Shown one piece after another: positions 2,780 to 60,561 of a stretch of DNA of 64,000 bases (positions within the stretch are counted from its first letter, which is position 1; each line of letters begins with the position of its first letter). The notes beneath the pieces are model-generated. The model searched no databases. It was not told where the DNA came from and saw only the letters and a list, made by a program, of their open reading frames with translations. The translations under genes and the position numbers were made by a program. Source of the stretch: Euglena gracilis (taxonomy: Eukaryota); the NCBI GenBank assembly GCA_039621445.1, contig CP154954.1:20198642-20262641 (forward strand), written 5' to 3'.

Positions 2780-3380
2780 CGGCCCCAGCCCCCTGTAGCA
2801 CCAAACTGGGCACAACCTCTGTCAACCCGCCCCCTGTGGTACCAAACTGGCCGCAACTTTTGCCATCCCTCCCCCCCCCTGCGGCACCAAACTGGGCAAC
2901 ACACCTGTGCCACCCCCCCCCCTGTGGCACCAAAATTGGGCAACAGCCGTGGCACCAAACTGGGGCAGTGCCACCCCCCCCCTGTGGAACCAAACTGGGG
3001 CAACCACCTGTGCCACCCCCCCCTGTGGCACCAAAATTGGGCAACACCCGTGGCACAAAACTGGCCACCACCTGTGCCAACCCCTGTGGCCCAAAACTGA
3101 CAACACCCGTAGCACCAAATTGCGCACCTGTGGCCCAAAACTGGCCACGTCTGTGGCCCAAAACTGGCCACCACCTGTGGCCCAAAACTGGCCACCACCT
3201 GTGGCCCAAAACTGGCCACCACCTGTGGCCCAAAACTGGCCACGGCCTGTGGCCCAAAACTGGCCACGGCCTGTGGCCCAAAACTGGCCACCAAATCTGG
3301 CCCAAACTGGCCAGATGTGCTGGCCCAAAACTGGCCAGCACACCTGTGGCCCAAACCTCCCCCAAGATGTGGCACCAAAA
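2780..3380. repeat. ~24-bp minisatellite (CTGTGGCCCAAAACTGGCCACCAC and degenerate variants)
   Basis: Tandem near-identical units at about 3130-3300 that degenerate outward. Related units occur reversed at about 8400-8660 and forward at about 9825-9875. Confidence 0.9.
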
Positions 3381-4633
3381 AAATGATTCAAATCAATGTA
3401 AATCAAATCCGAACCAGATTATCATTTCATTGCAAACAAAACGGACAGACAAACAAAAAAACTTCAAGGTTCAAGCCACAGCAACAGGAAGCAGAAAATA
3501 CACACGTTGTCTCTGATGGTCGTAACGAAAACAACATGGAACAGTTTAGTAGGGACATGTTCAGGTCCAGATTACCACATTCCAAGACCTTCAAGACCTT
3601 CCAGTTGCTTCATTTCATTTCAAGCATGGACTTCAACATTTGCTTCCCAGTGAGATCTGTAGGAGAGAGAAGTATATTCACTGACAGAATTCTTTGGCAA
3701 ACCTTTGTCCTCAGCGGGGAGCTTCACAGTACAAGTCCAACATACAATTCCAATCCTTCTGTAATGAGCCCTCATTCGGGTCGGATTGGCACTGGAAGAA
3801 GAAGTTCAGAACAGGGGTCAGATTTTGTGAAATACCAGGAAGGCGGACATTAATTTGGGATTGGCGATTCCTAACGCGAACGGGGGTTTTTGTTTTTGAC
3901 AAATGTCTAAATGTCATATTAATGTCAATTGTCTGTCAGAAACCCTTGTCATTTGCCAAAATTGGGAATGCTGCTCCCGACCACCTCCAAAGTGGCATAC
4001 TTCCCCCGTGACCCCCCCCGTGACCCCCCCCCGTGACCCCCCCGTGACCCGCACCACCCCCAAAGGGTCATCCAGGGGGGGGTTCATTTAGGGGGGGATA
4101 CTTTTCCCACTTGAAAAATTGCTCTGCTCTATGACCCCCCCCCCCCTAGATGACCCCCCAGGGGGTCATCTAGGGGGGGGGGTCATTTAGGGGGGGGTAC
4201 GCGGAAGTTACAAGCGAAACTTACAATTGTAAATTACGTCGCAATGCTATTCTCGGGTCACGGGCAGGTCACGGGGGGGTCACGGGGGTATTACCCCCCC
4301 CAATCTACCGCCATGCCGTTTGGCACTCCATGTTCCTGGGCTTTGCCTCTGAACGAGGAAAACAAACAACAAAATGCGCACCTTCGTGAAGCAGTTCTTG
4401 AGGCAAATGACGTTGGGTTTGTGTGTTGTCATCCCATGTGAGAAAAAACAAGTCAAAGGTCTCTGCAAAAAAAAATGCAGTTTAAGGTTTTGTTTATAGC
4501 CAAAGGGGGGGACCATTTTTGGACCCGAAGGCAGCAACCCGCCTGAAAAAGTGCACTGGCTTGGATGAATTCCAAAATAAAAATTGGCGGTGTACTTAAT
4601 CGGCGCGGTCTCGCCCCTCAAAGGAAAAAGCGG

Positions 4634-4705
4634 TGTGACCTCGTGGGTTTCGAACCCACGACCATACCATCATAAGACATGCTCCGCCATCATGTTAATG
4701 GTCAC
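4634..4705 (-). tRNA. Degenerate tRNA-like Pol III unit (pseudo-tRNA or tRNA-derived; anticodon ambiguous, ATG or TAT)
   Basis: On the minus strand: GTGACC...GGTCAC acceptor stem, T-arm CGTGGG-TTCGAAA-CCCACG, TGG in the D-loop region, and a TTTTT terminator 4 nt downstream (plus 4625-4629). The D-stem pairs poorly. Confidence 0.65.
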
Positions 4706-4784
4706 TCTGTATGCATTTGTGTGTGCGGCAGACGGGAGATCCTACGGAGGTTGGTAGCCGGCGCGTAGTACCAAGCCGAGTATC

Positions 4785-4857
4785 GCTCGAGTAGCTTATT
4801 CGGTAAGGTGCTGGGCTCACACGCGGGAGGTCGTGGGTTCGAGACCCAGGTCCCGCC
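4785..4857 (+). promoter_or_regulatory. tRNA-derived Pol III A/B boxes in the 5' LTR (second copy at 5477-5549)
   Basis: A-box-like TAGCTTATTCGG at 4792-4803. B box GGTTCGAGACC at 4836-4846 within a TGGG/CCCA T-stem. A CTCACAC anticodon-like loop (Val-CAC-like) lies at tRNA spacing. Confidence 0.75.
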
Positions 4858-5054
4858 GTGTGAGTCCTGATCGATCCCGTACGGGCAGAGGGCATACCGC
4901 GGGGATCGATCGGCGCGTGAGGCTGCGCACGTGGACGAACGTTGATCGGTCGGATTACCACGGGCGTGGCCCCTCGCCAGCGGACGAGCCACGGCAAGTA
5001 GCATGAGCTGCCCCGTGGCCGTCCAACGGCGGGTGGTGACGACCGACGTAAACA

Positions 5055-5067
5055 TGGTAGCAGAGGA
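5055..5067 (+). promoter_or_regulatory. Primer binding site complementary to the 3' end of initiator tRNA-Met
   Basis: TGGTAGCAGAGGA directly follows the 5' LTR and is the reverse complement of the eukaryotic tRNAi-Met 3' end (...CCUCUGCUACCA). Confidence 0.85.
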
Positions 5068-8000
5068 ACCCGTCTAATGCCACACGAACCGGGAAGTCAG
5101 AGCCTGACCCCACGGCGCCCGGAAGGCGGAGGCGGACGCGCCGAGTCTAGGGCGACTGAAACTCCTACACCGTTCCAAAGTCTCAAGCCGATGCTAAGGG
5201 GGACGCTCCAAGGCGGCAGAGCCCGTGGAAGTCGACAACACGTAAACTGCCGGCAATAGCAAACCCGAGCTGCAGGGGTCGGCAGCCTGGTGACGCAGTA
5301 CTCGTGAGAAGCACTCAGCCAACTAGGGCCGTGTGAGGCATAACCCGAGCTGCAGGGGCCACGGCCATAGTGACGCAGTGGGCTAGTGTAGTAAGGCTCT
5401 TGGGAGGGGAGTGTGTGCGGCAGACGGGAGATCCTACGGAGGTTGGTAGCCGGCGCGTAGTACCAAGCCGAGTATCGCTCGAGTAGCTTATTCGGTAAGG
5501 TGCTGGGCTCACACGCGGGAGGTCGTGGGTTCGAGACCCAGGTCCCGCCGTGTGAGTCCTGATCGATCCCGTACGGGCAGAGGGCATACCGCGGGGATCG
5601 ATCGGCGCGTGAGGCTGCGCACGTGGACGAACGTTGATCGGTCGGATTACCACGGGCGTGGCCCCTCGCCAGCGGACGAGCCACGGCAAGTAGCATGAGC
5701 TGCCCCGTGGCCGTCCAACGGCGGGTGGTGACAACCAACGTAAACAATTTGCCATGGACTTTTATCAAAATTTCTTAAAGAATGTCATTTTGGCCATTTT
5801 TTTTTTGCCAAACAAGTGCTCTTGTAGTGAACTTCACCAGTGAAGTAAACTTCACTAGTGAAGTTAACTTCACCCAATTTACCTTAACCAAATTTAACTT
5901 ACCCCCACCCCCCTCAAAATGTCACCCCCCAAACGTGGCCAAATTTTTTGGCAAATTTTGGTTTATCCCCTCAAAGGGTTTACCCCTCATTTTCCTTCGA
6001 CACCAAAGGCGACAAAGGGCGAAATTTGACCTCCCCTCCAAAGTGCCCCCCCCCCCCGGAGTGGCCATTTGGGTGCCACGATGCCTGGAGGGTGGCCACT
6101 TTGAGGGGGGTGAGGGTAGTGAAATTAAGTTAGTTAAGCTAACTTCACTGAGGCAGATGAGGGGGAGGGTTTCCGGGACCCCCCCCCCCGGTGTACTTCA
6201 CCATAGTTTCAAACAATGAACTTTATGGGGGGTCAAAATGCAAGGGGTGTGTGATTTTTTTAAAATTTCATAACTTTCATAAATTTCAAAAATTACCGTA
6301 AGTTACGGTAAGTTACGGGTGTGCAAATCATCAAAAATAAATTACGCAAAATTTGCAATGCTACCCGAGAATGGAGCCTTCAATTTTCATAATGCATCAA
6401 CCTTCATCACTCCAGCCTTTCTTTTCATTCAATCAGCCTGCTTTTTGATGTAGGTGGCGTTTTTGGTCGCTTTTCATCAATTTTCTGCTTCAAACCATCG
6501 AAAATTTGCCTTGACATGGTCAAAAACATGGAAAGAAACGCCAAGATTTGAGGTGAAAAGATTTTCGACCCAAACAATGGTGCCTTTTTGGCGTATTAAT
6601 TTGACCCAAAATATGCCCCATTGGCAAAAGCGGAGATTGTGCAAGTCTCATGGCAAAAGGGGTGGAGGGGAAACATGAAATTTTTGTGGAAGAAAAAACC
6701 CTAAAAAGCAGAAAAGAATTGTCCTCACCCCACCTTCCATTTGGGCAACCAAATCCCTTTTTGACACCCAACATCCAATGCACCTTCACACCCAAAAATG
6801 GCCAAAAATCTTGCCCCTAAATGTGCCAAAATTGCATTTCCACGCCCAAAAGGGGGTGTTCCCCCCGCGTCCCCCCCCGCGTCCCCCCCCGCGTCCCCCC
6901 CGCGCCCCGGATTTTGGCCGTGCACGTTTTTGGTCGACCAAAGGAAAATTACATACAAAGTTAGGTGATGCCAAAGAAAATGTGTGGGGGTGGTTGGGCC
7001 ACGGTTCCCCCCGCGTCCCCCCCGCGTCCCCCCCCGCGTCCCCCCCGCGTCCCGAACCACCCCCAAACAGAATTTTGGGTACATTTTTTTCCTTCAAAAT
7101 GGCCATTTTGGGCCATTTTCTCCAAAATGGCCCAAAATGCATCCCAAAAAAAAGTGACGGTCAAGAAATTCCTAACAAAATTCGCTTTCAAAAGATGAAA
7201 AAAAAAAGATCAAGTTCGGACATAAAAATCACCCACCGTGTCGCCAAGACCAAGTCGCCCAATTGGTCGGCCAGAATATTGTTGCAAATTTGTCCAAATC
7301 GGAAAAATCTGGAAATCGCCAAAAAACCACACCAAAAAGCGCAAAAGGCGGCCCCGGGCGGATTCCTGTGGGTGCTCATCCTGGGGGTGATGCCGACCTG
7401 GTCGGCCCGACCACCTGGTCGGCCCGACCATGGTCGGGCCGACCAGGTCGATAACTACCCCTGGGGGTGATACCGACCAGGTCGGTATCACCCCCAGGAA
7501 TCTGCCTTCCCCCCCCCCCCTTTTTGGAAATTTAAGCCCCCCCCCCGGGTTTCCAAAAGACGAGACCAACATGCACCCGAAAAGGGGTTGGCAGATAAAA
7601 GGGGTTGATTTTGTTAATGAAAGGGATAGGGTTTTTTTTTGATTTTGTGTGCATGCGCAACCGGACACCCATTGTCGGAGGGCGCCTTCGGCGCCCTTGG
7701 TCGTCTGGCGGGGGGGGGGGGCTGCCGCCCCCCCCTGCACCCCCGCCCCCCCCGCCCCCCAATGACAAAATCCCTTTGCTGCCGGACCATTTTGTGTGCA
7801 TGCGCAACCGGACACCCATTGTCGGAGGGCGCCTTCGGCGCCCTTTGTCGTCTAGCGGGGGGGGGGGGCTGCCGCCCCCCCCCCGCCCCCGGGGCGTTTG
7901 GTCAAGAAAGGGGGGGGGGTTCAATTAGGGGGGGGGGGAGGTGGTAATTGTCAATTAACCGTAGTAACAGTGGGTAGTCGGCCGACTCGTCGGCCAACCA

Positions 8001-11580: not shown

Positions 11581-12401
11581 TCTGTGGCAATGACACGTTT
11601 TCGATTAAGGCATCTGTGTTCAGGCACGTTTTCCATTAGGGCATCTGTGGTAACCCCGAGTAAAAAGCAAAAAGCGCTGTCGCAAAAAATCAGCGGGCGG
11701 TTGCGAGGCCGGGTGGTCCTCAACGAGTGAGGCGGGTCGGGGGCACTCTACAACAGGACAGAAGGCCAGGTGGCCTGGGAGCACAACGACACGGAGTGGC
11801 AGACATCATGGAACACGACACGCTTTACACAAAAAAGAGCCATACTTTGGTGGCCGCCGCAAATCTTGGCAATGAAAATGATATGCCAAACCGCAGGCGT
11901 CACACACAACTTTGTTCAGCTCCACACAATTTGGATTTTTGAGAATGGCAAAGAAGAAAAGAGGTTGCCGAACGATTCCCTGAAACGAACAAAGTTCCCG
12001 ACTGCTGCTCACGTTGAGCCACACATTGTTCAAAGACGCTCGCCTCATCGAACAACAGGCTGGGTTCCAGCTCCCATCCCGTCCAGGCAACAAAGAAAGC
12101 ATCCAGCTCAGGATAAGAGGCTTGCCGATGTTGACACAGTTTGGCGAACTCCAAACAGTTGGCAACAGCAGCAAGCCCCCCCCCCCCCCGGAGTGGCCAT
12201 TTGGGTGCCACGATGCCTGGAGGGTAACCACTTTGAGGGGGGTGAGGGTAGTGAAATTAAGTTACCATCCCCCCCCCGAGCTATTCCCCCCCCCCCGAGC
12301 TATTCCCATTGGGGGTACGGGAATAGCTCACTGTCATAGCACTTTTTTATAAAGAACTTCCTAAGAAAGTGGTAAAAAAAATCGACGTTTTTGGACCATT
12401 T
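11136..12401 (+). repeat. ~1.27-kb direct duplication, copy 1 (copy 2 at 19143-20408)
   Basis: Near-identical sequence from CG(A/G)ATCTCTGTTGCC to GGACCATTT flanks the transposase-bearing insert on both sides. Confidence 0.95.
11806..12000 (-). pseudogene. PHD-finger-encoding terminal exon or remnant (duplicated at about 19815-20010)
   Basis: Translation ...NCVELNKVVCDACGLAYHFHCQDLRRPPKYGSFLCKACRVP* matches the C-x2-C..H-x2-C..C-x2-C spacing of a PHD finger. Confidence 0.6.
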
Positions 12402-13148: not shown

Positions 13149-16100
13149 TTAAACTGCCTCGTCCTCCTCGGCAGTATTCCAATGGGGAATGTTCCTGTTC
13201 AGCTCCCGTGATAGGAACGACAGCCGGTGCCAAGCTTCGTTTTAAGACTGTCAGGGGGGGGGACGAACCCCGGCCGGCCCTGGACCGCGCAACCGGGGGG
13301 GGGGGGGGGAGGGTGCCTTCAGACTTAAAACGAAGGCTGGCCGGTGCGCCCTCTCCAAGCCAAGTCTGGGGCGTACATCTGACTAAGCCCCGGGGGGGGG
13401 GGGAGCGGTTCTGGGCTGGGGACAGAAAAGTGAGGTGGCTGAAAAATTGGGCTGGCAAACCCGCCCCCACCCCCTGGTGCAGGCAGAACCAGGTGGAACC
13501 TGAACCACTGAGAGGTGGACGGAAAGCGGAAAAATGCCTAAAAAAAACACATTCCGGTCGCAACCTTGAAGAACTGATGCATGGGGGGAATCACTGGACC
13601 CTAAAGAGATGTACGGTCTGGTGCGCAGCACCCCGTACGTCAGCTTCAGGGTGCTGAGCTGGCAGCATTCCGGTGCTCAAGGGGTCAGGGGGCCCGGGGG
13701 GGGGGGGGCTGCCTTTTTTTATAAAAAACCAGGCAGTCACGTGTTTCCGGGTAACAGGTGAGTCAGTCCCCCTCCCTGGACGCATCAGAATTTGACTGGG
13801 AATATCGTCTTCTGTTGACAAACACCCGCAGCAGTGACAGTCAGAGCACAGGGTTGATTGCCGCTCCAATGTGGCACTGGTCGCCGCCGCACCATGGAGG
13901 CGCAGAGCCAGGTCTGTCATCTTCGGGGGAAATCCATGACAGGTTCCCCGGCCAATTTTTTTTCCGAACCCCCCCGGCGATGGGGTCGGATCAGTTTGAT
14001 GAAAACCGGACTGCCACTCACTTTCAGTAGAGCAATCAGACAAAAAAAATGTGCAACCCAGACTGCCACTGGCCACTACCAGCCAAAAAATAAGGTAGAC
14101 AGTTTAAACACCCCACCTGACTGCGAAACCTGGAACCAAACGCCTCCCCGCTGACCACCACGTACACTCGTCAACGTCCGTCTCCATTCGATCTGCTGTG
14201 AACGGCGCGGCCTGCCCCAGCCACATGGTGATGGCCCCGTCCTCCACCCGTTCCCCGATCCACTTGGTAGCCACGGTGACCTGGTCGGTGGACAAGTTCC
14301 GTCCCACGTACCGGTGATGCAGCAGGTACGCGGACAGAAAGACGGGATTGTCCCTGCAAGGGTTACAGTCGCATGGCTGGGGGGGGGGGCAGAATAGCAG
14401 ACTGTACCACCAGCACTGTGAGGGACAGGCTTTTTTTTAAAGAAAAGAAACCCTGCACCAAAGCCAGTGCTGCACGTTGTTGAACGTGCTTCCATCCTGC
14501 TTTGAAGTTGTCCTCTTCAGGGCCCCCCCCTCACCAAAGGCGCAAAGGCTGTCCGGGTCAGGCTTCTTTTTAAGACCCCCGGGGGGGGGTCCCCCCCCAC
14601 CCACCCAGGGTGGCGCGGGACCCCCCCCGGGGGGGGGGGGGGGGGGTGGGGGGGGGGGGGGGGGGGGGGGGGGGGCGGGCGCCCCCCCAAAAATCGGGCC
14701 CGCTAAAGGGGGGGGGTCCGGGTCTGGGCCAAAAAAAAATACCCAACCCTGCCCTTTTTTGGGAAAGGCCCTGGCTGCGCGGGAAGGCGGCCATGAGGCT
14801 GAGCCAAATGCTGACTGCGTCGGCAATGGTTGTGCCGTTGGCCTGCATGTTGTCCAGCGCCACCGCCACCGGCTGCAGCTGGAGGAAGAAATCCTCTGAT
14901 GCCCGGCGCACTCCCAGATTCTCCAAATCGCGCCGCTGTGGTTCGCCGACTTCAAGCCACCGCAACAGGTTGCCGGGGGGGGGGAAACTTTCCGAAATTC
15001 AGTGCAATTTAAACCCGAGGCAGTCAACCATTTTCCAAAATCCATCACCACACCATGCACCAAACCAGCCCATCACCATGCAGTGCGTTGCAGTCAGCAA
15101 TTAACGCAGAACCCCCCCACCCACCTGCAGGAAATGTGACGGCCTGGGCGGGTCGCTGCAGGGTCGCGGTGATCTCCACCAGAGTCGACCAATTCCGGTT
15201 ATAGTACTCGAGGGCATGAAAATGACTCCCCCACCGCACTTCTGTGGGGATGATCACAGAGGTTTTTTTTTTGGACAGCGGGGGGGGGGGAGGGGGCCAG
15301 AGAGTCCAGAAAAAAGAATTCCAGAAATATCACTACCATGAACCTAAAGCATAAAACCGGTGCAAACAGGAAACTGGAAGCAATTCAATGTGCTAACTGT
15401 AACGCACAAAAAGAACCCCACCCCGGGTTCCCAGAACACAAAAAAGTCTCTGATTGGGTGGTAACCCGAGGCCACGGGTCACCAGCCCAGCATGCGCAGC
15501 GTGGTTCTGTGTAAACCACCGCAGCACGCCGATTACCCGGGATAGCATCTCGCTCTGCGGTACCAGATCGCGTGAAAGGAGATGCAACCAGTGTGCCTGG
15601 CAAGGCACGGGGATGATCTCCGGCACGGTGGCGGCGGTGAAGTTTTCTCTCATTCTGGTCATATTTGACGCCGAATCGGTTGTCAATGCGACCACCGTGA
15701 CCTGCATCTCGGACGTGACCTTGTCATAGTACTCCTTCGTGATGCTTTCCAAGTAGGCAGCAGCTGCGGGGATTCTTTCAACCCGCCACAGGAAAACGGC
15801 AGTGCGTGAAAGGGGGGGGTCAGCATTCCAAAAAATCTCCGACTGGTATGCGGCACGCCCGTCGTGTCCTCGCAACCCACAAGGAATGAATCCATGCCCG
15901 CCTTCAGGCCCCCTACCCAAAGGCCAAACCAAAAGGGGGGAACAATGTTTACGCACCTTGGGACAGAAGCCTGCATACGGCAACCGACACGGCCACCACT
16001 GGTTCGTTGGCCCCCGTGGACCAGCCATCCACCATGAGGGTGCCCGTACGGCCGCGAATCTGTCTCACCACCTTGCCAAACTCCATTTCGTAGATGGAGT

Positions 16101-16958: not shown

Positions 16959-18985
16959 GGATACCGCCGCGAGAACGGTGGTGGGGCGAACCGAATCCAC
17001 CGACCAGTGGCACTGCCTACTGGATTTGAGTGTTCAGAGAGGGGGAAGCTATGTACAGATGGGGAAACCCCATGGATAGTCAGAAGGGGTTTGATAGTCA
17101 GGGAAGGGTAAGCGGGGACGAAGGGGGCTTAGCGGCCGATGGATGCTGGGGAGGGGGAGGCTGCGCGGCCGGGCGGTTGGGGAGAGAAGCGTCAAGGTTC
17201 GTGGTGGCGTCCTGGTGGAGATTGGCCTTTGGCGGTGATGCAGGGATGAGCCGCCGTGGTGCATGCTGGGACTTGATTTGGCTGCCGCTGCCTTGGAGCT
17301 CGCGACGAGACGGCGGACGTCGTGCTCAGTCTAGGTGTTGAAGAGGGCGCACAAGCGCTTTCAGCGTAGGATGTGTTTCGGGCGCAGCATTTGCGCAAGC
17401 TGCCGGAAGAGTGAAAGCGCCAGAAGCTGGTAGCTCTCGGCCTGGCGCGTGGCACCGATGTCTCCGCGATCCCATGAGGTGGTGCATTTGATAATCCGGG
17501 TTAGCAGCTTTGCGCTTTCGGGTCCAAGGCCACCCCACGTGCCCATGGCCAGGGTGGCAAAGGACCATCCCCCGTTTTGGCAGGGAGTGTCGTACTTAGT
17601 ATGCTTGGCGACCTCCTTCCTTTTAAGGAACGTCCTCCACCGTTCCCGAGTGGCCAGCCTTTCGGCAGCTTGCCAGCCATGGGCGATGGTGATGTCCACT
17701 GCCGTGGGCTTCCCATCCTGCCAGGTAGCTAGAAGCAGGTCAGCCGGCCGCAGCGAGCTGTCGGGTTGGTTCGGCACCGGGACCTCGCGCTGCACGCTTT
17801 GACCGTTCGTTGACAAGATGTTAAAAAGTGCGTCTTGAACGGCGTTGTGGCGGTTCGCAAAGTTATTGCGAATGCAGCACAGATCGTGGTCGCCATGGAC
17901 ATCCACGGTGGCCTGACAACCAGCACAGATGGTTGGAGAGTCCGCCAGTGGCAAGCCCAGCCACCATTTCAGTCCCAGTCGGTAGTCTGCCGGGTCGATG
18001 ACAGTGTGCAGCGCTTCGTGGGGAGGTACCGCCATCCACCCGTGCCCGATGCCGTTGACTTGCTCCAGGAGCCGTGCTTGGTCACGTTGGGCTGACCTGT
18101 CCACCAAGGCATCCACAGTGGTTTTGGCAGACTCCTTTTGCCACCATCGTTGGGAGGTATCGTTTCCTGAGGCGCAAGCGAAGGCGGCGGAGTTTGCTAG
18201 GCGACTGCTTTCCGGGTGACGATTTCCTAGCGTGGAACACAAGTCATGGGCGGCTTGCTGGCAAGTGCGGTCGTCTGGGGCGGCAGCGTAGTCAGGGCAT
18301 GCCACCTTCTTGTGGCCGTGTGTGTAGAACTGACATAAGGCTGCAGTGCGGGCGGCGCCTTGGTGGGACGCCGGAATTCGGAGGCCGCAGCCGCCCGCTG
18401 AGAGCGGTAACGCTGCTTGTAGCCGCTGATCCGCGTTCAGGGCCTGTCCCAGGATATCTTCGAAGGCGCTGAAGATGGTCTCACCGCAGCGTGAGACTTC
18501 GCTTTGCGCTTGATACGAATCTGAGGCACGCAGGAGGTGGTTTACGCGACAGCCGTCCAGACAGTAGCGGAGGAGATGGTGGGCCAACTGGGGATCGGCG
18601 ACCGAAGTAACGAGGTCAGCAGCTTGTTCGATCTTTTCAGTTGCTTCCGCCCAGGCGGCGACAGTGTGGTCTGCAGAGCTGGGGAAGTCGACTGGGCAGC
18701 CCAGGACCGTGATTCCGGACCCCTCGGCCCAGGGCACCATTTTCAGAAGTTCTCGGTCGGGGAGGCTGGCTGCTGCTGGTCCCCACAGGACACACTTGGC
18801 CAGATTAAGCTGTATCCCAGTGCGACTGCTTTCGCTGCGTAGGTAGTCAAGGCACTTCTGAAGAACCGTTGGCTCTCCTACGAGGATTCCGTCATCCAGA
18901 TACCAGCAGGACCACAGCAGTTCTGCTTGGGTGCTGATAGCCTCCGCGATGGACTGCAGGCCAACAGCAAAGCCGATCGGCCCCA
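16959..18985 (-). mobile_element. 5'-truncated RLE-type non-LTR retrotransposon, CRE-like
   Basis: 13-bp TSD AGGGCAGAAAAGG at 16946-16958 and 18986-18998. The element carries the RT/RLE ORF and about 400 bp of 3' UTR with no poly(A). Confidence 0.9.
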
Positions 18986-18986
18986 A
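17361..18986 (-). CDS. Reverse transcriptase C-terminal half + CCHC zinc knuckle + restriction-like endonuclease (5'-truncated)
   Basis: PLGP..YLDDG (RT motifs), LPLSAGGCGL, CAGC..HDLCC..RHNAV, RPADLL..AVDITI..KEVAKHTKY (PD-D/ExK RLE). The 541-codon frame is intronless. Confidence 0.9.
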   Translation of the reverse strand: MGPIGFAVGLQSIAEAISTQAELLWSCWYLDDGILVGEPTVLQKCLDYLRSESSRTGIQLNLAKCVLWGPAAASLPDRELLKMVPWAEGSGITVLGCPVDFPSSADHTVAAWAEATEKIEQAADLVTSVADPQLAHHLLRYCLDGCRVNHLLRASDSYQAQSEVSRCGETIFSAFEDILGQALNADQRLQAALPLSAGGCGLRIPASHQGAARTAALCQFYTHGHKKVACPDYAAAPDDRTCQQAAHDLCSTLGNRHPESSRLANSAAFACASGNDTSQRWWQKESAKTTVDALVDRSAQRDQARLLEQVNGIGHGWMAVPPHEALHTVIDPADYRLGLKWWLGLPLADSPTICAGCQATVDVHGDHDLCCIRNNFANRHNAVQDALFNILSTNGQSVQREVPVPNQPDSSLRPADLLLATWQDGKPTAVDITIAHGWQAAERLATRERWRTFLKRKEVAKHTKYDTPCQNGGWSFATLAMGTWGGLGPESAKLLTRIIKCTTSWDRGDIGATRQAESYQLLALSLFRQLAQMLRPKHILR

Positions 18987-19142
18987 GGGCAGAAAAGGAC
19001 ACGCCGTGAGCGCGAGGGCAAGCAGATCCTACTTTGAGTTTCCGACAGTTTCCGACAGCATTTCGACATTTTTGACGTTTTATTCCTTGTCGAAATGGTC
19101 TTTTTGTCTTTTTCCTAGTAAAAGACACTTAACTCCACACTG

Positions 19143-20408
19143 CGGATCTCTGTTGCCGAGTCCAATGGGTCAGATAGCCAAGTTGACGTAAATTCATTCG
19201 CACAAGCATGAGCGCATCAACGGAGCAATCACTAAGGCGATTGCGCAAATCATTGGGGTCGGAGCTTCTTTCATCTGATGACACCCCTCCTCGAAGGGTT
19301 ATGTTCGGTGTTGCAGTTGAAAATTGCCTCTTTTCCAAAAGGGAACTTCGATTACCCACACAACGAGGTCTATCCCCCACCCAGTGTCTAAGTCCCCAAA
19401 GGGTGGAGAAATGTTCCCAAACCCAAGACACCTTTGATTTCTGCAAAAAAAAAAGGTCGATTAACTGGGGGGCCACAAGCGATTAACCGTTTTTCGATTA
19501 ACCATGGTTAATTGTCCCCCCCACAAACGATCGATTAACTGGGGGGGTCACAAGCGATTAACCGTTTTTCGATTAACCATCCAACCCTGTCTGTGGCAAT
19601 GACACGTTTTCGATTAAGGCATCTGTGTTCAGGCACGTTTTCCATTAGGGCATCTGTGGTAACCCCGAGTAAAAAGCAAAAAGCGCTGTCGCAAAAAATC
19701 AGCGGGCGGTTGCGAGGCCGGGTGGTCCTCAACGAGTGAGGCGGGTCGGGGGCACTCTACAACAGGACAGAAGGCCAGGTGGCCTGGGAGCACAACGACA
19801 CGGAGTGGCAGACATCATGGAACACGACACGCTTTACACAAAAAAGAGCCATACTTTGGTGGCCGCCGCAAATCTTGGCAATGAAAATGATATGCCAAAC
19901 CGCAGGCGTCACACACAACTTTGTTCAGCTCCACACAATTTGGATTTTTGAGAATGGCAAAGAAGAAAAGAGGTTGCCGAACGATTCCCTGAAACGAACA
20001 AAGTTCCCGACTGCTGCTCACGTTGAGCCACACATTGTTCAATGACGCTCGCCTCATCGAACAACAGGCTGGGTTCCAGCTCCCATCCCGTCCAGGCAAC
20101 AAAGAAAGCATCCAGCTCAGGATAAGAGGCTTGCCGATGTTGACACAGTTTGGCGAACTCCAAACAGTTGGCAACAGCAGCAAGCCCCCCCCCCCCCGGA
20201 GTGGCCATTTGGGTGCCACGATGCCTAGAGGGTGGCCACTTTGAGGGGGGTGAGGGTAGTGAAATTAAGTTACCATCCCCCCCCCGAGCTATTCCCCCCC
20301 CCCCGAGCTATTCCCATTGGGGGTACGGGAATAGCTCACTGTCATAGCACTTTTTTATAAAGAACTTCCTAAGAAAGTGGTAAAAAAATCGACGTTTTTG
20401 GACCATTT
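19143..20408 (+). repeat. ~1.27-kb direct duplication, copy 2
   Basis: Near-identical to 11136-12401. Confidence 0.95.
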
Positions 20409-21102
20409 TCAAAAATCACCTTTTGGCAAATGTGCTCAAAATTGACCATTTTTTGCGAACATCCAAAAAGTTGCCAAAAATAACCCCTTTTGGGTTGCCC
20501 GAGGGTCGGGTATGGGAATAGCTCGGGGGGGGGGGGACCTGGGTCCCCCCCCCCTCCGAGCTGTTCCCCCCCGTACTGTTCCCATTGGGCCGTAAAGGGT
20601 CCTAGGGACGGGAATAGCTCGGGGGGGGGGGGGGGCATGGTAGTTAAGCTAACTTCACTGAGGCAGATGAGGGGGAGGGTTTCCGGGACCCACCCCCCGT
20701 TGTACTTCACCATAGTTTCAAACAATGAACTTTATGGGGGTCAAAATTCAAGGAATGATTGAGCAAGGAAAGAGGGGTCCTGGGGTGTGTGATTTTTTTA
20801 AATTTCATAACTTTCATAAATTTCAAAAATTACCGTAAGTTACGGTAAGTTACGGGTGTGTAAATTATAAATAATAAATTACGCAAGATTTGCAATGCCA
20901 AATGGGAATTTTTTCAACCCATAAATATCCCATTTGGTCCCGGATTTCTAACTGGGGTTGCATTAATCTTGATTTTGCGTCTTGCCAGAGTCACACCCCG
21001 CCTACAGATTGCCTGGTCTTGTTTTTTTTGTGTGCACTTGTCTTGGGGAGTTACGTCCAAAAACATTTTTTTTTGTGACAAGTTTTTGTTGTTGTTTTAC
21101 AG

Positions 21103-29245: not shown

Positions 29246-32200
29246 GAACAAACGGATGCTGAAATGGACGAGAAAGGAAGGGATTTTGTCAATGAATACA
29301 CCGTGATCAAGCACTTGGGATCTGGAACATATGGCACAGTAAATCTGTGTGAGCATTATCAAAACAGGCAATTTCTATCAAGCACTCATGGGACGGGAAA
29401 CAAATTGCTGTCTCCACCTTTGTAAGCCCTTGTTTTTCAAAGGCTGAACACCAGTATTTCACACGAGCATTTGCAATTTGAAATTTTGCTATTTTTTTGT
29501 CAACTGGAGTTTTCCCTAAGTTAGACCCAGGCTTATTAGTTACCTCCCAAAAAGTCTGTCAAGATTGCCTGCCTCTGACGCAGGAACAGTATGCGGTGAA
29601 GGTCATCCCTCGTGCAAAGGTGAAGAAAGCAAATGTGGCGGAAGCTGAGATTTTGAAGAAGCTGAACTGAGGCCTCATCCTGTGCCAACTCTCTGTAAGT
29701 TTGTGCGCGATGATCAGTGTTTTTGCCAGTTTCTTTCCAGTATGTTCCAGAAATCTATGAGGCAGTGGTCTCCATGCAACATCCGAACGTCATTCAGATG
29801 TATGAGTTGATGGATGACGCCGGGCAAGAGTTCATTTACCTTTTGCAGGCTTCTTCTCCACAGCGATATGTGGCATGAGAAAGGTTTTTTTTTAGGGTTG
29901 GTCTGCCAGGCTACCACAAACTCAGGCAAAAAAGGGGGGACAGAGGCGGAAAACAGCGCCAGACCAGAAGAGAACAAACAGCCGCAGTGCATGCATGGGC
30001 GGATTTGCACGTGTGCCAGAATGAAGCTAAAGCCTGATTTCGTGCTAGAGTTTGTGGCGGACGGTGCCATTATGTCCCTCGATGGAGATGGCCAAGCAAA
30101 GACACCCACCCTAGAAGAAGTCACTTGTGCAAAGTGCATGAAGCAGGTCACAGAAGGGCTTGCCTACCTGCACAGTATGAACATCATCCACCGCGATATT
30201 AAGCCAGACAACTTGCTCATAGACAGAAAGAAAGACGTTGTCAAGCTCTGTACTCAGGGTTCTTCCTGATTGTCAAAGGGTTTTCTGAGAAAAAATCATT
30301 TTGAAAGAGATGTGGAAAGCCTGAAGTGTGGAGCAATGGAGCAATTAACACAAAAAATGATTTTTTCGGCAGAGGTATTTTGTTCACAAGGCTTTTGTGG
30401 CAGGCTATATTTCATTTTCGCCTCCAGAACAGAAGAATGTTTTTTGATTTCGCCGTGCATTTATTTTGAGGCAGAGGGCTGATTGCTTCATTTTCATCAT
30501 AGGAAGCATTCCTTGCACCCCAACCATTATTCCCAAAAAGAACGGGAAGACGCTCTGTGCTTCGATTTCGGCGTCGGAATGCTGTTTGAGAACGAGAACG
30601 ACACAGTGCGCAAAACGGAGGGTACCCCGTTTTTCCTGGCTCCCAGCCAGGGCTGCACCGCAGACCCCCACAGGCGCTATGCGGGTCTCCTCCCTCCCCT
30701 GGCCCCCTCGCGCATCAGGCTCGCCCGTCCAGCCGTGGCTCCGAGGCCTGCCGGGGGCAGTACTACTCCGGGAAGTCCTCCGATATCTGGCAACTTGGTA
30801 TCACGCTGTTCGCGTTGATTTTTGGCCCTCCAGGGAGCTTAATTGTGGCTGGGGCTCGTGGTTTCGAAGTATCAGATATCAAAATGATGTTGATGGACCC
30901 CACCTGCCAGGGGGGGGGGGCGATAAAATCACCCACCTTCTTTTAATCATGGGTGGGTCAATTATGGGTCTGGCTGACCGTTTCCATGACAGATTTATCC
31001 TCTGGGGGAGGCTATGTGTGGGTTGCCGGGGAATTATGACAGCGTGCAGGGGAATGGTAGGGCTGGCAAATATGGTTAAATTCTCTGGTCCATTTCTGAG
31101 GATGACTGGAATAGGGCCTCGGGAGCAAGTTTCTTGAGGCTCCTGGGTTGTATTACTCAAGGTCTCTGCTTCTGTGTGCCATTCTTAGCTGCAAATCAGG
31201 TCGCCCTCTTCAACGACATCCAGCAAAAGCCTCTTTCTGGGCAAGGGGCAACTTATGCCACTCCAGAGATGCAGATCTTCTCCTCTTCCTCTTTTTTTCG
31301 GATCGGCGACACACAGACACCAACAGCAGCCAATTTCAATCAACAAACATTGCTTACGGCGTGGATGGGTGGATGGAGAGCGATGGGTTGCAGTGAAGCA
31401 ACCAGAAACCCCTCAGTTGACCCCTCCAATTGAACCTGGGAGCCACTACCCCCCCCCTTAATAAGTGCACGGGTGCGCGCATTTTAAGGACGTAGTTTCA
31501 GACCCCAAGGGGTGCGCATTCATTAGGGCACTGCGCACTTATTAGGACGAAGTTTCCCCCACACTTTTTCATTTTGTGATGTCAAGCAATGAATCAAGAG
31601 ATCATGTGTCAAATCTGTGCTTGGATGATAGAAATATTTCGTCTGAGAAGGGCAGTTCTGAGAAATGTGTGTTCTTTTCCGACCTGAGATGTGACAGTGA
31701 TTTCTACTTCGGGGGGATGCGCACTTTTTAGGGAGGTAATTTCGGACCCTTGGGGGTGCGCACTTATTAGGGCACTGCGCACTTATTAGGGCACTGCGCA
31801 CTTATTAGGGGCGGGTTTACAATCAAGCAAGAGGGGTCCAAATGAAAGCTGGAGGCAGCAGAAACCGGCAGTGCAATGTCAAATAGTGCCATGCTTTTGC
31901 CCCGCAGGTAGCAGTCCGCCACCTGCGCTTTGATGGAGAGCTTAGGAAGCTGCATTTTCATTTTTTCCGCTTTGTTTGGCAATTTGCCCATACCACACCA
32001 GACCACACTACACCATACCTTACCTGACCTTATCTTTCCTTACCTTACCTGACCTGATTTTACTACAACATACCATACCATACCATACTGTACGTACCGT
32101 ACCATACCATACCATACCATACCATACCATACCATACCTTACCTTACCGTATCGTACCGTACCGTACCATACCATACCATACCATACCATACCATACCAT

Positions 32201-34680
32201 ACCATACCATACCATACCATACCATACCATACCATACCATACCGTACCGTACCGTATCGTACCGTACCGTACCATACCATACCATACCATACCATACCAT
32301 ACCATACCATACCATACCATACCATACCATACCATACCATACCATACCATACCATACCATATCATACCATACTGTACCGTACCGTACCATACCATACCGT
32401 ACCGTACCGTACCGTACCGTACCGTACCGTACCATACCATACCATACCATACCATACCATACCATACCATACCATACCATACCATACCATACCATACCAT
32501 ACCATACCATACCATACCATACCATACCATACCATATCGTACCATACCATTCCATACCACACCACACCACACCACACCACACCACACCACACCATACCAT
32601 ACCATACCATACCATACCATACCATACCATACCATACCATACCATACCATACCATACCATACCATACCATACCATACCATACCATACCATACCATACCAT
32701 ACCATACCGTACCGTACCGTACCGTATCGTATCGTACCATACCATACCGTACCGTACCGTACCATACCATACCATACCATACCATACCATACCATACCAT
32801 ACCATACCATACCATACCATACCATACCATACCATACCATACCATACCATACCATACCATACCATACCATACCATACCATACCATACCATACCATACCAT
32901 ACCATACCATACCTACCATACCATACCATACCGTACCGTACCATACCATACCATACCATACCATACCATACCATACCATACCATACCATACCATACCATA
33001 CCATACCATACCATACCATACCGTACCGTATCGTATCGTATCGTACCATACCATACCATACCATACCTTACCATACCATACCATACCATACCATACCATA
33101 CCATACCATATCGTACCATACCATACCATACCATACCATACCATATCGTACCACACCACACCACACCATACCATACCATACCATATCACACTTTATGGCA
33201 GAGAACTTCATCCGCCTCCCGGAGCCAACGCTGCCCAGTGACAGCATCCCAAAGGGGGCCAGTGCCAACTTGAGCCACCTGCTGCAGCGCATGCTGGAGA
33301 AGGACGCCCTCATCCGCATCTCCCTCAATGAGATCAAGGACCGCCCGGGCCCCTTCCAGCATGGCTCATGGGCGAGGTGAGGACGCACTCTTATTTTGTC
33401 AACCCCGTGTGACTTTTGTCCGTCTGACCTATCTGACGTTCCAATTGTTGACCTCTTCCGTCCTGGCAGAGTACCCCCGAGGTCCAGCCAAGAGCCCGTT
33501 TCTTTCCAACCCCCTCCCTTCGATGAGCTCTGACTTCCTATTCAGCGCTTCAATTGTTACAGGGGTTAGGACTGAGGTTTCTGAATTTCTGGTCACAGGC
33601 CACACTGGCCCTCAGTCTCTAAAGCGCCACCATGAAGGAAAGAGACAGTTTTGGTACCTTTTTTTATACCCACCGCAAGATGAAACCAAGTTCTTTTGTT
33701 TCCCCTGTGCTTCACCCCCTGATAAGTGACCCGAAAACCCTGGTCTTGCCCCCCCCCCTGCATGGCAACTGCAACCGCTTTCAGTGAATTTCAACTGTAA
33801 CAAGGTTCAGTGAACTTCGAAAAGATGGCATTGCATTATTTGCCCAAACCCCCAAGCCAGTTTATTTGTTAGCTCCACGAGATCGGCCGCCCAAGTCAAA
33901 AATGTATGGCCCAACCCAGGGCATTCTTCAAGGGACGGGGCAAATATTTTGTTTTAAAATTTAAAGGTCCGCCCTTGGGCTAAATGCTGTCCACCTGCCG
34001 GTCTGGGGATTGAACTGGGTTGAAAACTAAAAAAAAAATAACAGAAAGCTTTAAAACACCTTTTCTGATATATTCAGTGGATGGACGATGGACCAAGGAT
34101 GCTAGAAATCAATTTTCCCCCAATGCCGACCTGTTTTCGCCGAAAAATGTCAATTTTTTCACCACTTTTTTTGCAAGGATTTTTTGTTGTTGAATGTGTC
34201 CGGATAGCAGAAAACAAGCACCTTAAACTTGAAGGTAGCCCTGGCCAAGCCCCAAAATTTTTGTTTCAAAAACGAGCTTTTGTTAATTGTGGCCAAACTC
34301 AAATTTCCCCAGTCTGGTCGAACCCAGGTCGGGTTCCAGCCAGTGCACTATGTCTCATGGGGGAGGGGAGGACGGTCAGCAGGCCAGCCACTGAGCCATC
34401 CCAACCAGCCCAAATTTTCTGACCTCAAGGCCACTGGGGGGGGGGGACTCTGGTGCATATTCGACAGGGGCAAGTGAGAGTCATTTTCTCAAAAAAAGAT
34501 CATGTGATACTGAACCGGAATTTTTTTTGCTCCGGAGATTGAAGGCGACCGCTCACACCCCTGGGTCACGGGGGAGAACAGCCCCGTGCCGAACTCCATG
34601 CGCCTGGTGGCCGCCGCCTCCGCGGAGAGTCTGACGTACTCTGAGCCGCCCGTCGCCGGCTTCTTCTTGCGCCTCGTCCC
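29246..34680 (+). CDS. CaMKK-like Ser/Thr protein kinase domain (multi-exon)
   Basis: Spliced translation: VNEYTVIKHLGSGTYGTV..YAVKVI..HPNVIQMYELMDD..IYLVLEFV..HRDIKPDNLL..KLCDFG..RKTEGTPFFLAPE..YSGKSSDIWQLGITLFALIFGRVPF..MLEKD..RISLNEIK.HPWVT. Introns at 29362-29576, ~29660-29773, 29843-30041, 30252-30563, 30645-30742, 30828-31173, ~31234-33209 and ~33340-34554. Confidence 0.92.
32050..33185. repeat. (TACCA/TACCG)n pentanucleotide microsatellite inside a kinase intron
   Basis: About 1.1 kb of ACCAT units with ACCGT, ATCGT and ACCAC variants. Confidence 0.97.

Positions 34681-41869: not shown

Positions 41870-60561
<18,692 letters not shown>

Follow-up and report, generated by a model that had tools for sequence, protein, structure and literature searches.

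Retrotransposons that integrate beside tRNA genes have been described, in the portion of the literature at hand, from the compact genomes of yeasts and dictyostelids. Within the 64,000-nt stretch of Euglena gracilis DNA analysed here as a whole (the window), a gene-free TRIM lies head to head with a tRNA-like sequence, its edge falling where a tRNA-targeting element would be expected. Was the element directed there by the RNA polymerase III (Pol III) machinery, or did it come to that position by chance? We give a probability of about 0.5 to the reading that this insertion was untargeted, or had at most a loose bias such as one for AT-rich or open DNA, and reached its Ty3-like position by chance. 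With the same even odds we hold that a single insertion is no evidence that the TRIM family aims at Pol III start sites. Such aiming across the family is a fair lead with one striking data point, a single copy that cannot establish a preference.

Direct reading and self-comparison delimited a TRIM of 1,027 bp with direct LTRs, a TSD, a PBS (primer-binding site) and a polypurine tract (Table 1). The two LTRs differ at two positions in 335 nt (5041 and 5045), and the insertion is therefore young. A PBS-like TGGTAGCAGAGG begins at 5055, and the first 12 nt of the PBS presumably match the 3' end of initiator tRNA-Met. A Pfam scan covered 266 of the 310 frames of at least 90 aa in the window (a low-complexity filter dropped 33, and 11 over simple repeats were left out). 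It found no Pfam family in the stop-to-stop frames of that length within the TRIM, and no reverse transcriptase or integrase domain in any of the 266 frames. When the TRIM and its two flanks were compared with the 64-kb window by low-stringency BLAST, no second TRIM copy appeared; the matches were copies of neighbouring MITE-like pieces only. Scans for the family in genome-contig collections and in a viral-contig collection gave no match. A metagenome scan with the LTR start returned a single locus and no genuine copy. That locus (query, the first 22 LTR nt) was dismissed as a chance match, being a GC-rich, coding-looking bacterial contig without LTR continuation.

Table 1. Coordinates of the TRIM, its target and their sequence features (positions in the window)
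Feature	Positions	Strand	Remarks
TTTTT run, Pol III terminator-like	4625-4629	-	2 nt (GC) past the tRNA-like sequence; minus strand ...GGTCACACCGCTTTTTCC
Decayed tRNA-like sequence	4632-4705	-	74 nt; ARAGORN c[4632,4705], His(atg), at 95% of threshold
Exact B box of the tRNA-like sequence	4646-4656	-	GGTTCGAAACC; motif search
Spacer	4706-4714		9 nt, from tRNA-like 5' end to TSD
TSD, left copy	4715-4719		ATTTG, 5 bp
TRIM	4720-5746		1,027 bp
5' LTR	4720-5054	+	335 nt, ends TG...CA; 99.4% identity with 3' LTR
tRNA-derived module, 5' LTR	4785-4857	+	A-box-like motif and B box; Rfam tRNA 15.8 bits
A-box-like motif	4792-4803	+	TAGCTTATTCGG; in 5' LTR module, present in both LTRs
B box	4836-4846	+	GGTTCGAGACC; in 5' LTR module, present in both LTRs
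TRIM internal region	5055-5411	+	357 nt, non-coding
Primer-binding site	5055-5070	+	TGGTAGCAGAGGAACC; abuts 5' LTR end
Polypurine tract	5402-5411	+	GGGAGGGGAG; abuts 3' LTR start
3' LTR	5412-5746	+	335 nt; tRNA-derived module 5477-5549, B box 5528-5538
TSD, right copy	5747-5751		ATTTG; directly outside 3' LTR
Repeat-unit sequence upstream of the tRNA-like unit	5752-5781		contiguous with the tRNA-like unit in uninterrupted copies elsewhere

The architecture of the element places it close to Helenus, which the consulted parts of Kojima 2024 (PMC10886601) describe as the tRNA-type branch of TRIMp3, with tRNA-derived sequence in the LTRs. According to that account, Helenus elements measure 311-1,263 bp, have LTRs with a box A (TRGCY...YGG) and a box B (GGTTC), show a TSD of 5 bp in fungi and plants and of 4 bp in animals, and are probably mobilised by autonomous LTR elements (PMC10886601). 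The TRIM studied here is a new, GC-rich and apparently very abundant element of the Helenus/TRIMp3 kind, and it fits each feature examined. Two LTRs enclose a PBS and a polypurine tract without any gene, the total length falls within the published range, box A and box B are present in both LTRs in a tRNA-like part that does not look functional, and the 5-bp ATTTG duplication is of the size found in the fungal and plant families. It differs from the families covered by the available part of that paper in its 335-nt LTR, longer than the longest reported (323 nt), and in its GC content of 64%, as opposed to the AT-rich fungal consensus sequences. Two exact motifs taken from the LTR module and flank, and the 12-nt PBS, gave no matches in Data S1 of PMC10886601; as far as this weak test goes, the element belongs to none of the families published there. 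The available text of the same paper is silent on target preference: the words "preference" and "nested" do not occur in it. Among better-known elements, the plant TRIM Cassandra, whose LTRs contain a 5S rRNA-derived Pol III promoter (as summarised in PMC10886601), is likewise a non-autonomous LTR element whose internal LTR promoter originates from a small RNA gene. By description, the source differs: a tRNA for the present module, 5S rRNA for that of Cassandra.

The tRNA-derived module of the LTR scored 15.8 bits (E 6.2) against the Rfam tRNA model, below the gathering score of 29, and ARAGORN called it only at 80% of threshold, which is noise level. The module may allow transcription of the TRIM by Pol III, because the element is free of T or A runs of four or more; that absence would suit read-through by Pol III but is not significant in statistical terms, about one run of each kind being expected by our estimate. 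Public contigs from three DNA runs (X1, X3 and X9) and one RNA run (X20) were aligned to positions 4000-6500. The RNA library X20 yielded seven contigs of the TRIM family, which come without start or strand and may include DNA carry-over.

Several of these contigs depart from the structure of the window copy. A 661-nt contig of X20, a leaf-litter metatranscriptome, covers 4975-5630 and runs from the interior through a whole LTR back into the interior; it could be a tandem TRIM array or a mere assembly cycle. A second X20 contig matches the LTR module over 4796-4848 only; its divergence beyond that stretch is what a separate tRNA-like element would show. LTR variants also appeared in the public contigs, with loose ends at 4916, 4919 and 4975 and joints 4916>5048 carrying about 10 foreign letters, which suggests subfamilies differing in the 3' third of the LTR over 4916-5048 (equivalent to 5608-5740).

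We then examined the neighbour itself. The initial annotation had described a minus-strand tRNA-like gene that starts at 4705 and ends in a T5 terminator, and both the tRNA-like unit (4632-4705) and the T5 run (TTTTT, 4629-4625) are confirmed. In the tRNA-like sequence the T arm is perfect, the acceptor stem has 6 bp, and the anticodon stem, which flanks ATG, contains two G-U pairs. The D stem is unpaired or broken, and no A-box pattern match was found. The exact B box GGTTCGANNCC occurs three times in the 64 kb, in the tRNA-like unit and in the two LTRs, against 0.48 expected. With one mismatch allowed, the 17 B boxes in the window equal chance (16.4 expected); the window therefore holds no hidden crowd of tRNA relics. 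ARAGORN at 95% of threshold made two calls in the 64-kb window, one of them the tRNA-like sequence, whereas 40 block-shuffled control windows gave a mean of 0.1 calls, with one call in 4 of the 40.

More stringent detection returned nothing: ARAGORN at its default threshold reported no tRNA gene in the whole window, Rfam at gathering score produced no match in the window, and the Rfam tRNA model RF00005 did not match the tRNA-like stretch even at E up to 10. A functional tRNA should form a cloverleaf above the detector thresholds, and this sequence does not. Its minimum-energy fold (z -2.98) joins an acceptor/T-arm stem to a long hairpin and is not a cloverleaf. Sequence 4632-4705 is a true tRNA relic, above chance, yet not a callable gene. 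A low-stringency BLAST disclosed no second tRNA-like unit in the window. X20 contigs give no cover over the unit, and contig sets of this sort cannot show absence. Other Rfam matches near the site (Plastid-ycf2, YrlA and several miRNAs) were set aside as noise, all having E of at least 0.1 and falling far under their gathering scores.

The same public contigs revealed what the site looks like without the TRIM. Here we considered the best-supported 15 of 74 joints and the best 19 of 1,396 loose ends. A joint 4720>5753, present in two contigs of X3 and one of X9, skips 1,032 bases, that is, the 1,027 bp of the TRIM and one 5-bp TSD copy. These empty-site joints corroborate a clean TRIM integration with one ATTTG duplicated. 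Further uninterrupted forms were 4720>5758, seen in X1 and X3, and 4703>5755 in X1, with 22 foreign letters between. The uninterrupted forms differ from one another, and their depths lie far over those of the lowest flank bins; they thus represent several members (paralogues) of a repeat family and not a single allele. On their shorter side the joints continue for at least 24-29 letters past the insertion point, so that the repeat unit extends at least 38 nt upstream of the tRNA-like start. The target therefore lies inside a repeat that reaches beyond the insertion, and it is no stand-alone gene with a unique upstream flank. We also considered a tRNA-headed SINE as the target and rejected it: in such a SINE the tRNA-related head would begin the repeat, with unrelated DNA ahead of each copy, but the copies here have in common at least 38 nt upstream of the tRNA-like start.

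Summed word depth in these runs is a rough guide to abundance and, by the tool's own warning, gives no copy number. On this rough scale, which is not to be read as copies, the TRIM reached 3.2-5.9e5 in X1 and 0.9-6.5e4 in X9, with 1.2-2.7e4 for its interior bins (5092-5427) in X9. Equally rough values were 3.1e4 (X1) and 394 (X9) for the tRNA-like bin, and 2.0e3 (X1) and 22 (X9) for the lowest flank bin. The TRIM family and the target repeat are both multicopy, and the TRIM family looks tens of times more abundant than the target family, again roughly. At position 4683 in X9, the joint skipping 1,032 bases accounts for 165.6 of a total depth of 186.4; most target copies therefore look empty.

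The geometry of the insertion is what makes the locus striking. The first base of the tRNA-like sequence (4705) and the LTR edge (4720) are separated by the 14 nt 4706-4719, with the two units head to head, as the initial annotation had stated. Its placement of the TSD in the expected start region also proved correct: ATTTG at 4715-4719, repeated at 5747-5751, covers positions -10 to -14 of the unit, and the LTR edge stands at -15. Published accounts, as far as their available parts go, put Ty3 insertions about 15 bp ahead of the 5' end of the mature tRNA, 1-4 bp upstream of where transcription starts (PMC5006619, PMC6101501), and DGLT-A insertions 13-33 bp upstream of tRNA genes, with a mean of 15 (PMC5006619); the Pol III start site is quoted at roughly -12 (PMC5006619). 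The spacing of 14 nt lies inside this published Ty3/DGLT-A insertion window in the one copy examined (1/1), an exact fit. The sole TRIM in the 64 kb thus adjoins the sole exact B box outside a TRIM. For one relic and one TRIM in 64 kb, random insertion 5-25 nt upstream of the relic has a probability of 3.3e-4, and insertion within 50 nt on either side of it a probability of 1.6e-3.

The likeness to Ty3 of Saccharomyces cerevisiae, the element with sigma LTRs, comprises both the insertion point, which lies upstream of the mature tRNA start by about 15 bp, and the TG...CA ends. Ty3 likewise makes a 5-bp duplication. The differences are also plain: Ty3 is autonomous and low-copy and targets active Pol III genes in a compact genome, whereas the TRIM, a non-autonomous and seemingly very abundant element, is known from one insertion, whose target is a decayed relic belonging to a repeat. 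The distance of 14 nt likewise falls within the 13-33 bp window given for DGLT-A in the sections of PMC5006619 at hand; DGLT-A is an autonomous element of the Ty3/gypsy type and low-copy, whereas the TRIM is gene-free. In those two systems' literature, as available, the B box is the main TFIIIC contact, and the contacts of DGLT-A with the TFIIIC subunit Tfc4 are made by its RNase H and by the N-terminus of its integrase (PMC6101501).

By analogy, a partner element of the Ty3/DGLT-A kind might have supplied an integrase or RNase H, which would engage TFIIIB or TFIIIC bound at the tRNA-like unit and cut at the start of that unit, a mechanism we consider possible but doubtful here. We are similarly hesitant about its family-wide counterpart, under which at least a fraction of the family's insertions would go to Pol III units, tRNA-derived repeats included. 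The distance argues for such direction, 14 nt with the TSD at -10 to -14 being set against the published values of about 15 bp or 13-33 bp in the available descriptions, and so does the pairing of the window's only TRIM with its only exact B box outside a TRIM, at a random chance of 3.3e-4. Insertion by an integrase would account for the 5-bp duplication and the TG...CA ends. With its B box and T5 terminator intact, the relic might still be occupied by a Pol III complex. Against this stand the single copy, a target that lacks an A-box match and escapes tRNA detection by ARAGORN at default and by Rfam, and a window whose 266 scanned frames contain no reverse transcriptase or integrase from which a partner might be judged. 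The known cases, in the sources as available, all come from compact genomes. Most target copies look empty in X9, and the TRIM is, on rough depths, tens of times commoner than the target family. DGLT-A is itself low-copy in all dictyostelids, according to the same partial sources, so that low occupancy, and with it empty target copies, is still compatible with targeting. An extension of the idea had been that the element, with Pol III boxes in its own LTRs, might also target itself. This gained no support, since no LTR edge appeared at about 4765-4775 among the best 15 of 74 joints and the best 19 of 1,396 loose ends, a weak test.

A different explanation, which we judge improbable, is that the tRNA-like unit belongs to a mobile element, either a SINE or another TRIMp3 LTR, and that such repeats cluster or attract one another so that the TRIM became nested. 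Of the readings considered, this one comes nearest to the self-targeting idea. Across the T arm and the 3' acceptor, the flank module and the LTR module agree at 27 of 33 positions (local score 36; highest score among 300 shuffles, 28), but the two modules have dissimilar 5' halves, and overall 47 of 78 columns agree. Unrelated tRNAs in one organism commonly have similar T arms. As nesting would have it, the flank unit is multicopy and reaches upstream past its tRNA-like part, yet no second copy of it lies within the window. Short published Helenus LTRs have a similar layout of TG, a short leader, a tRNA-like part, a T-run and CA (PMC10886601, Data S1), and fungal Helenus families are reported that could encode tRNA-His or tRNA-Thr (PMC10886601, in its available part). 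However, no duplication of 5-6 bp brackets TG...CA pairs around the unit; the nine 4-bp matches were judged to be about what chance would give, a judgement made without a control. A solo-LTR outline around the tRNA-like unit was accordingly discarded, the nine 4-bp flanking matches including none of 5-6 bp. Nor was an LTR edge seen just upstream of the LTR's own module among the best 15 of 74 joints.

We return to the untargeted reading. A young, non-coding element of the Helenus/TRIMp3 kind, 1,027 bp long, integrated through a 5-bp staggered cut that produced the ATTTG duplication. Its landing site is one copy of a dispersed repeat carrying a decayed tRNA-His(ATG)-like sequence. The integrase would have come from elsewhere, because the TRIM has no genes, and its probable source is an autonomous LTR retrotransposon located outside the window. 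In favour of this reading, the target is decayed, with no tRNA gene call, no A-box match and a broken D stem, and the window consists almost entirely of repeats, unlike the compact genomes of the tRNA-targeters described in the sources as available. The TRIM is so abundant, and its targets so scarce and so often empty, that the family cannot mainly occupy such targets, as far as rough depths allow the comparison. The small coincidence of 3.3e-4 for an insertion 5-25 nt upstream argues against it, as does the distance of 14 nt, inside the 13-33 nt window and near its mean of 15. Our weighting of these two readings multiplies a small prior for targeting by a likelihood ratio of a few hundred, lowered by the counter-evidence.

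The less favoured possibility of direction by Pol III would carry wider consequences. It would make the TRIM, with a Pol III promoter in its LTRs, an element that a partner delivers to Pol III initiation sites, decayed tRNA repeats among them, in a repeat-rich genome, a picture we hold tentatively. If it is true, one element would use the Pol III system twice, for its own transcription and for the choice of its landing site. The targeting of tRNA genes would then extend past the compact yeast and dictyostelid genomes to a repeat-rich genome and to a non-autonomous element, and one would expect a partner retrotransposon that encodes a new integrase able to bind TFIIIB or TFIIIC. The literature covered, which lies outside subscription journals, yielded no description of a TRIM or TRIMp3 element aiming at Pol III start sites; the papers it contains on non-autonomous LTR elements and integration ahead of tRNA genes appear to concern TRE5-A or to be general reviews. 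Within that coverage, Ty3-like targeting by a non-autonomous LTR element would have no precedent.

The window is repetitive nearly throughout, with MITE-like palindromes and microsatellites, and its 266 scanned frames include a single kinase exon. Just one clear signal of a host gene emerged from the 64 kb, a protein kinase domain fragment at 29811-30266 on the plus strand (Pkinase, E 3e-17), which is probably one exon. Palindromic MITE-like elements with long C/G runs and GTGAC-type arms occupy both sides of the locus (4011-4290 and 5830-6150), and related pieces lie at 12178-12264, 20186-20272 and 20641-20709; the MITE-like bins are among those with the highest contig depths in the public runs. 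An open frame of 555 aa at 17364-19028 on the minus strand has no Pfam family. A reverse transcriptase domain is present in about 40% of the members of its language-model neighbour clusters, so this frame may belong to a non-LTR retrotransposon. Both the kinase exon and the 555-aa frame matched a mixture of eukaryotic phyla and gave no lineage. Two minus-strand frames about 8 kb apart, 11809-12261 and 19818-20264, show an equal weak PHD-finger match (E 5e-4, below the cut-off), which suggests that a block of some 8 kb was duplicated. At 15393-16028 on the minus strand, DUF659 was matched weakly, under the cut-off (E 0.005). DUF659 often accompanies hAT transposases, and the frame may be a transposon relic. 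Simple repeats include a 24-nt tandem repeat (x12) at 3075-3355, (CATAC) x224 at 32069-33185, (CATA) x64 with an adjacent TA-rich array of 16-nt period and TC tracts at 43247-43881, and (ATATAC) x49 at 44499-44790.
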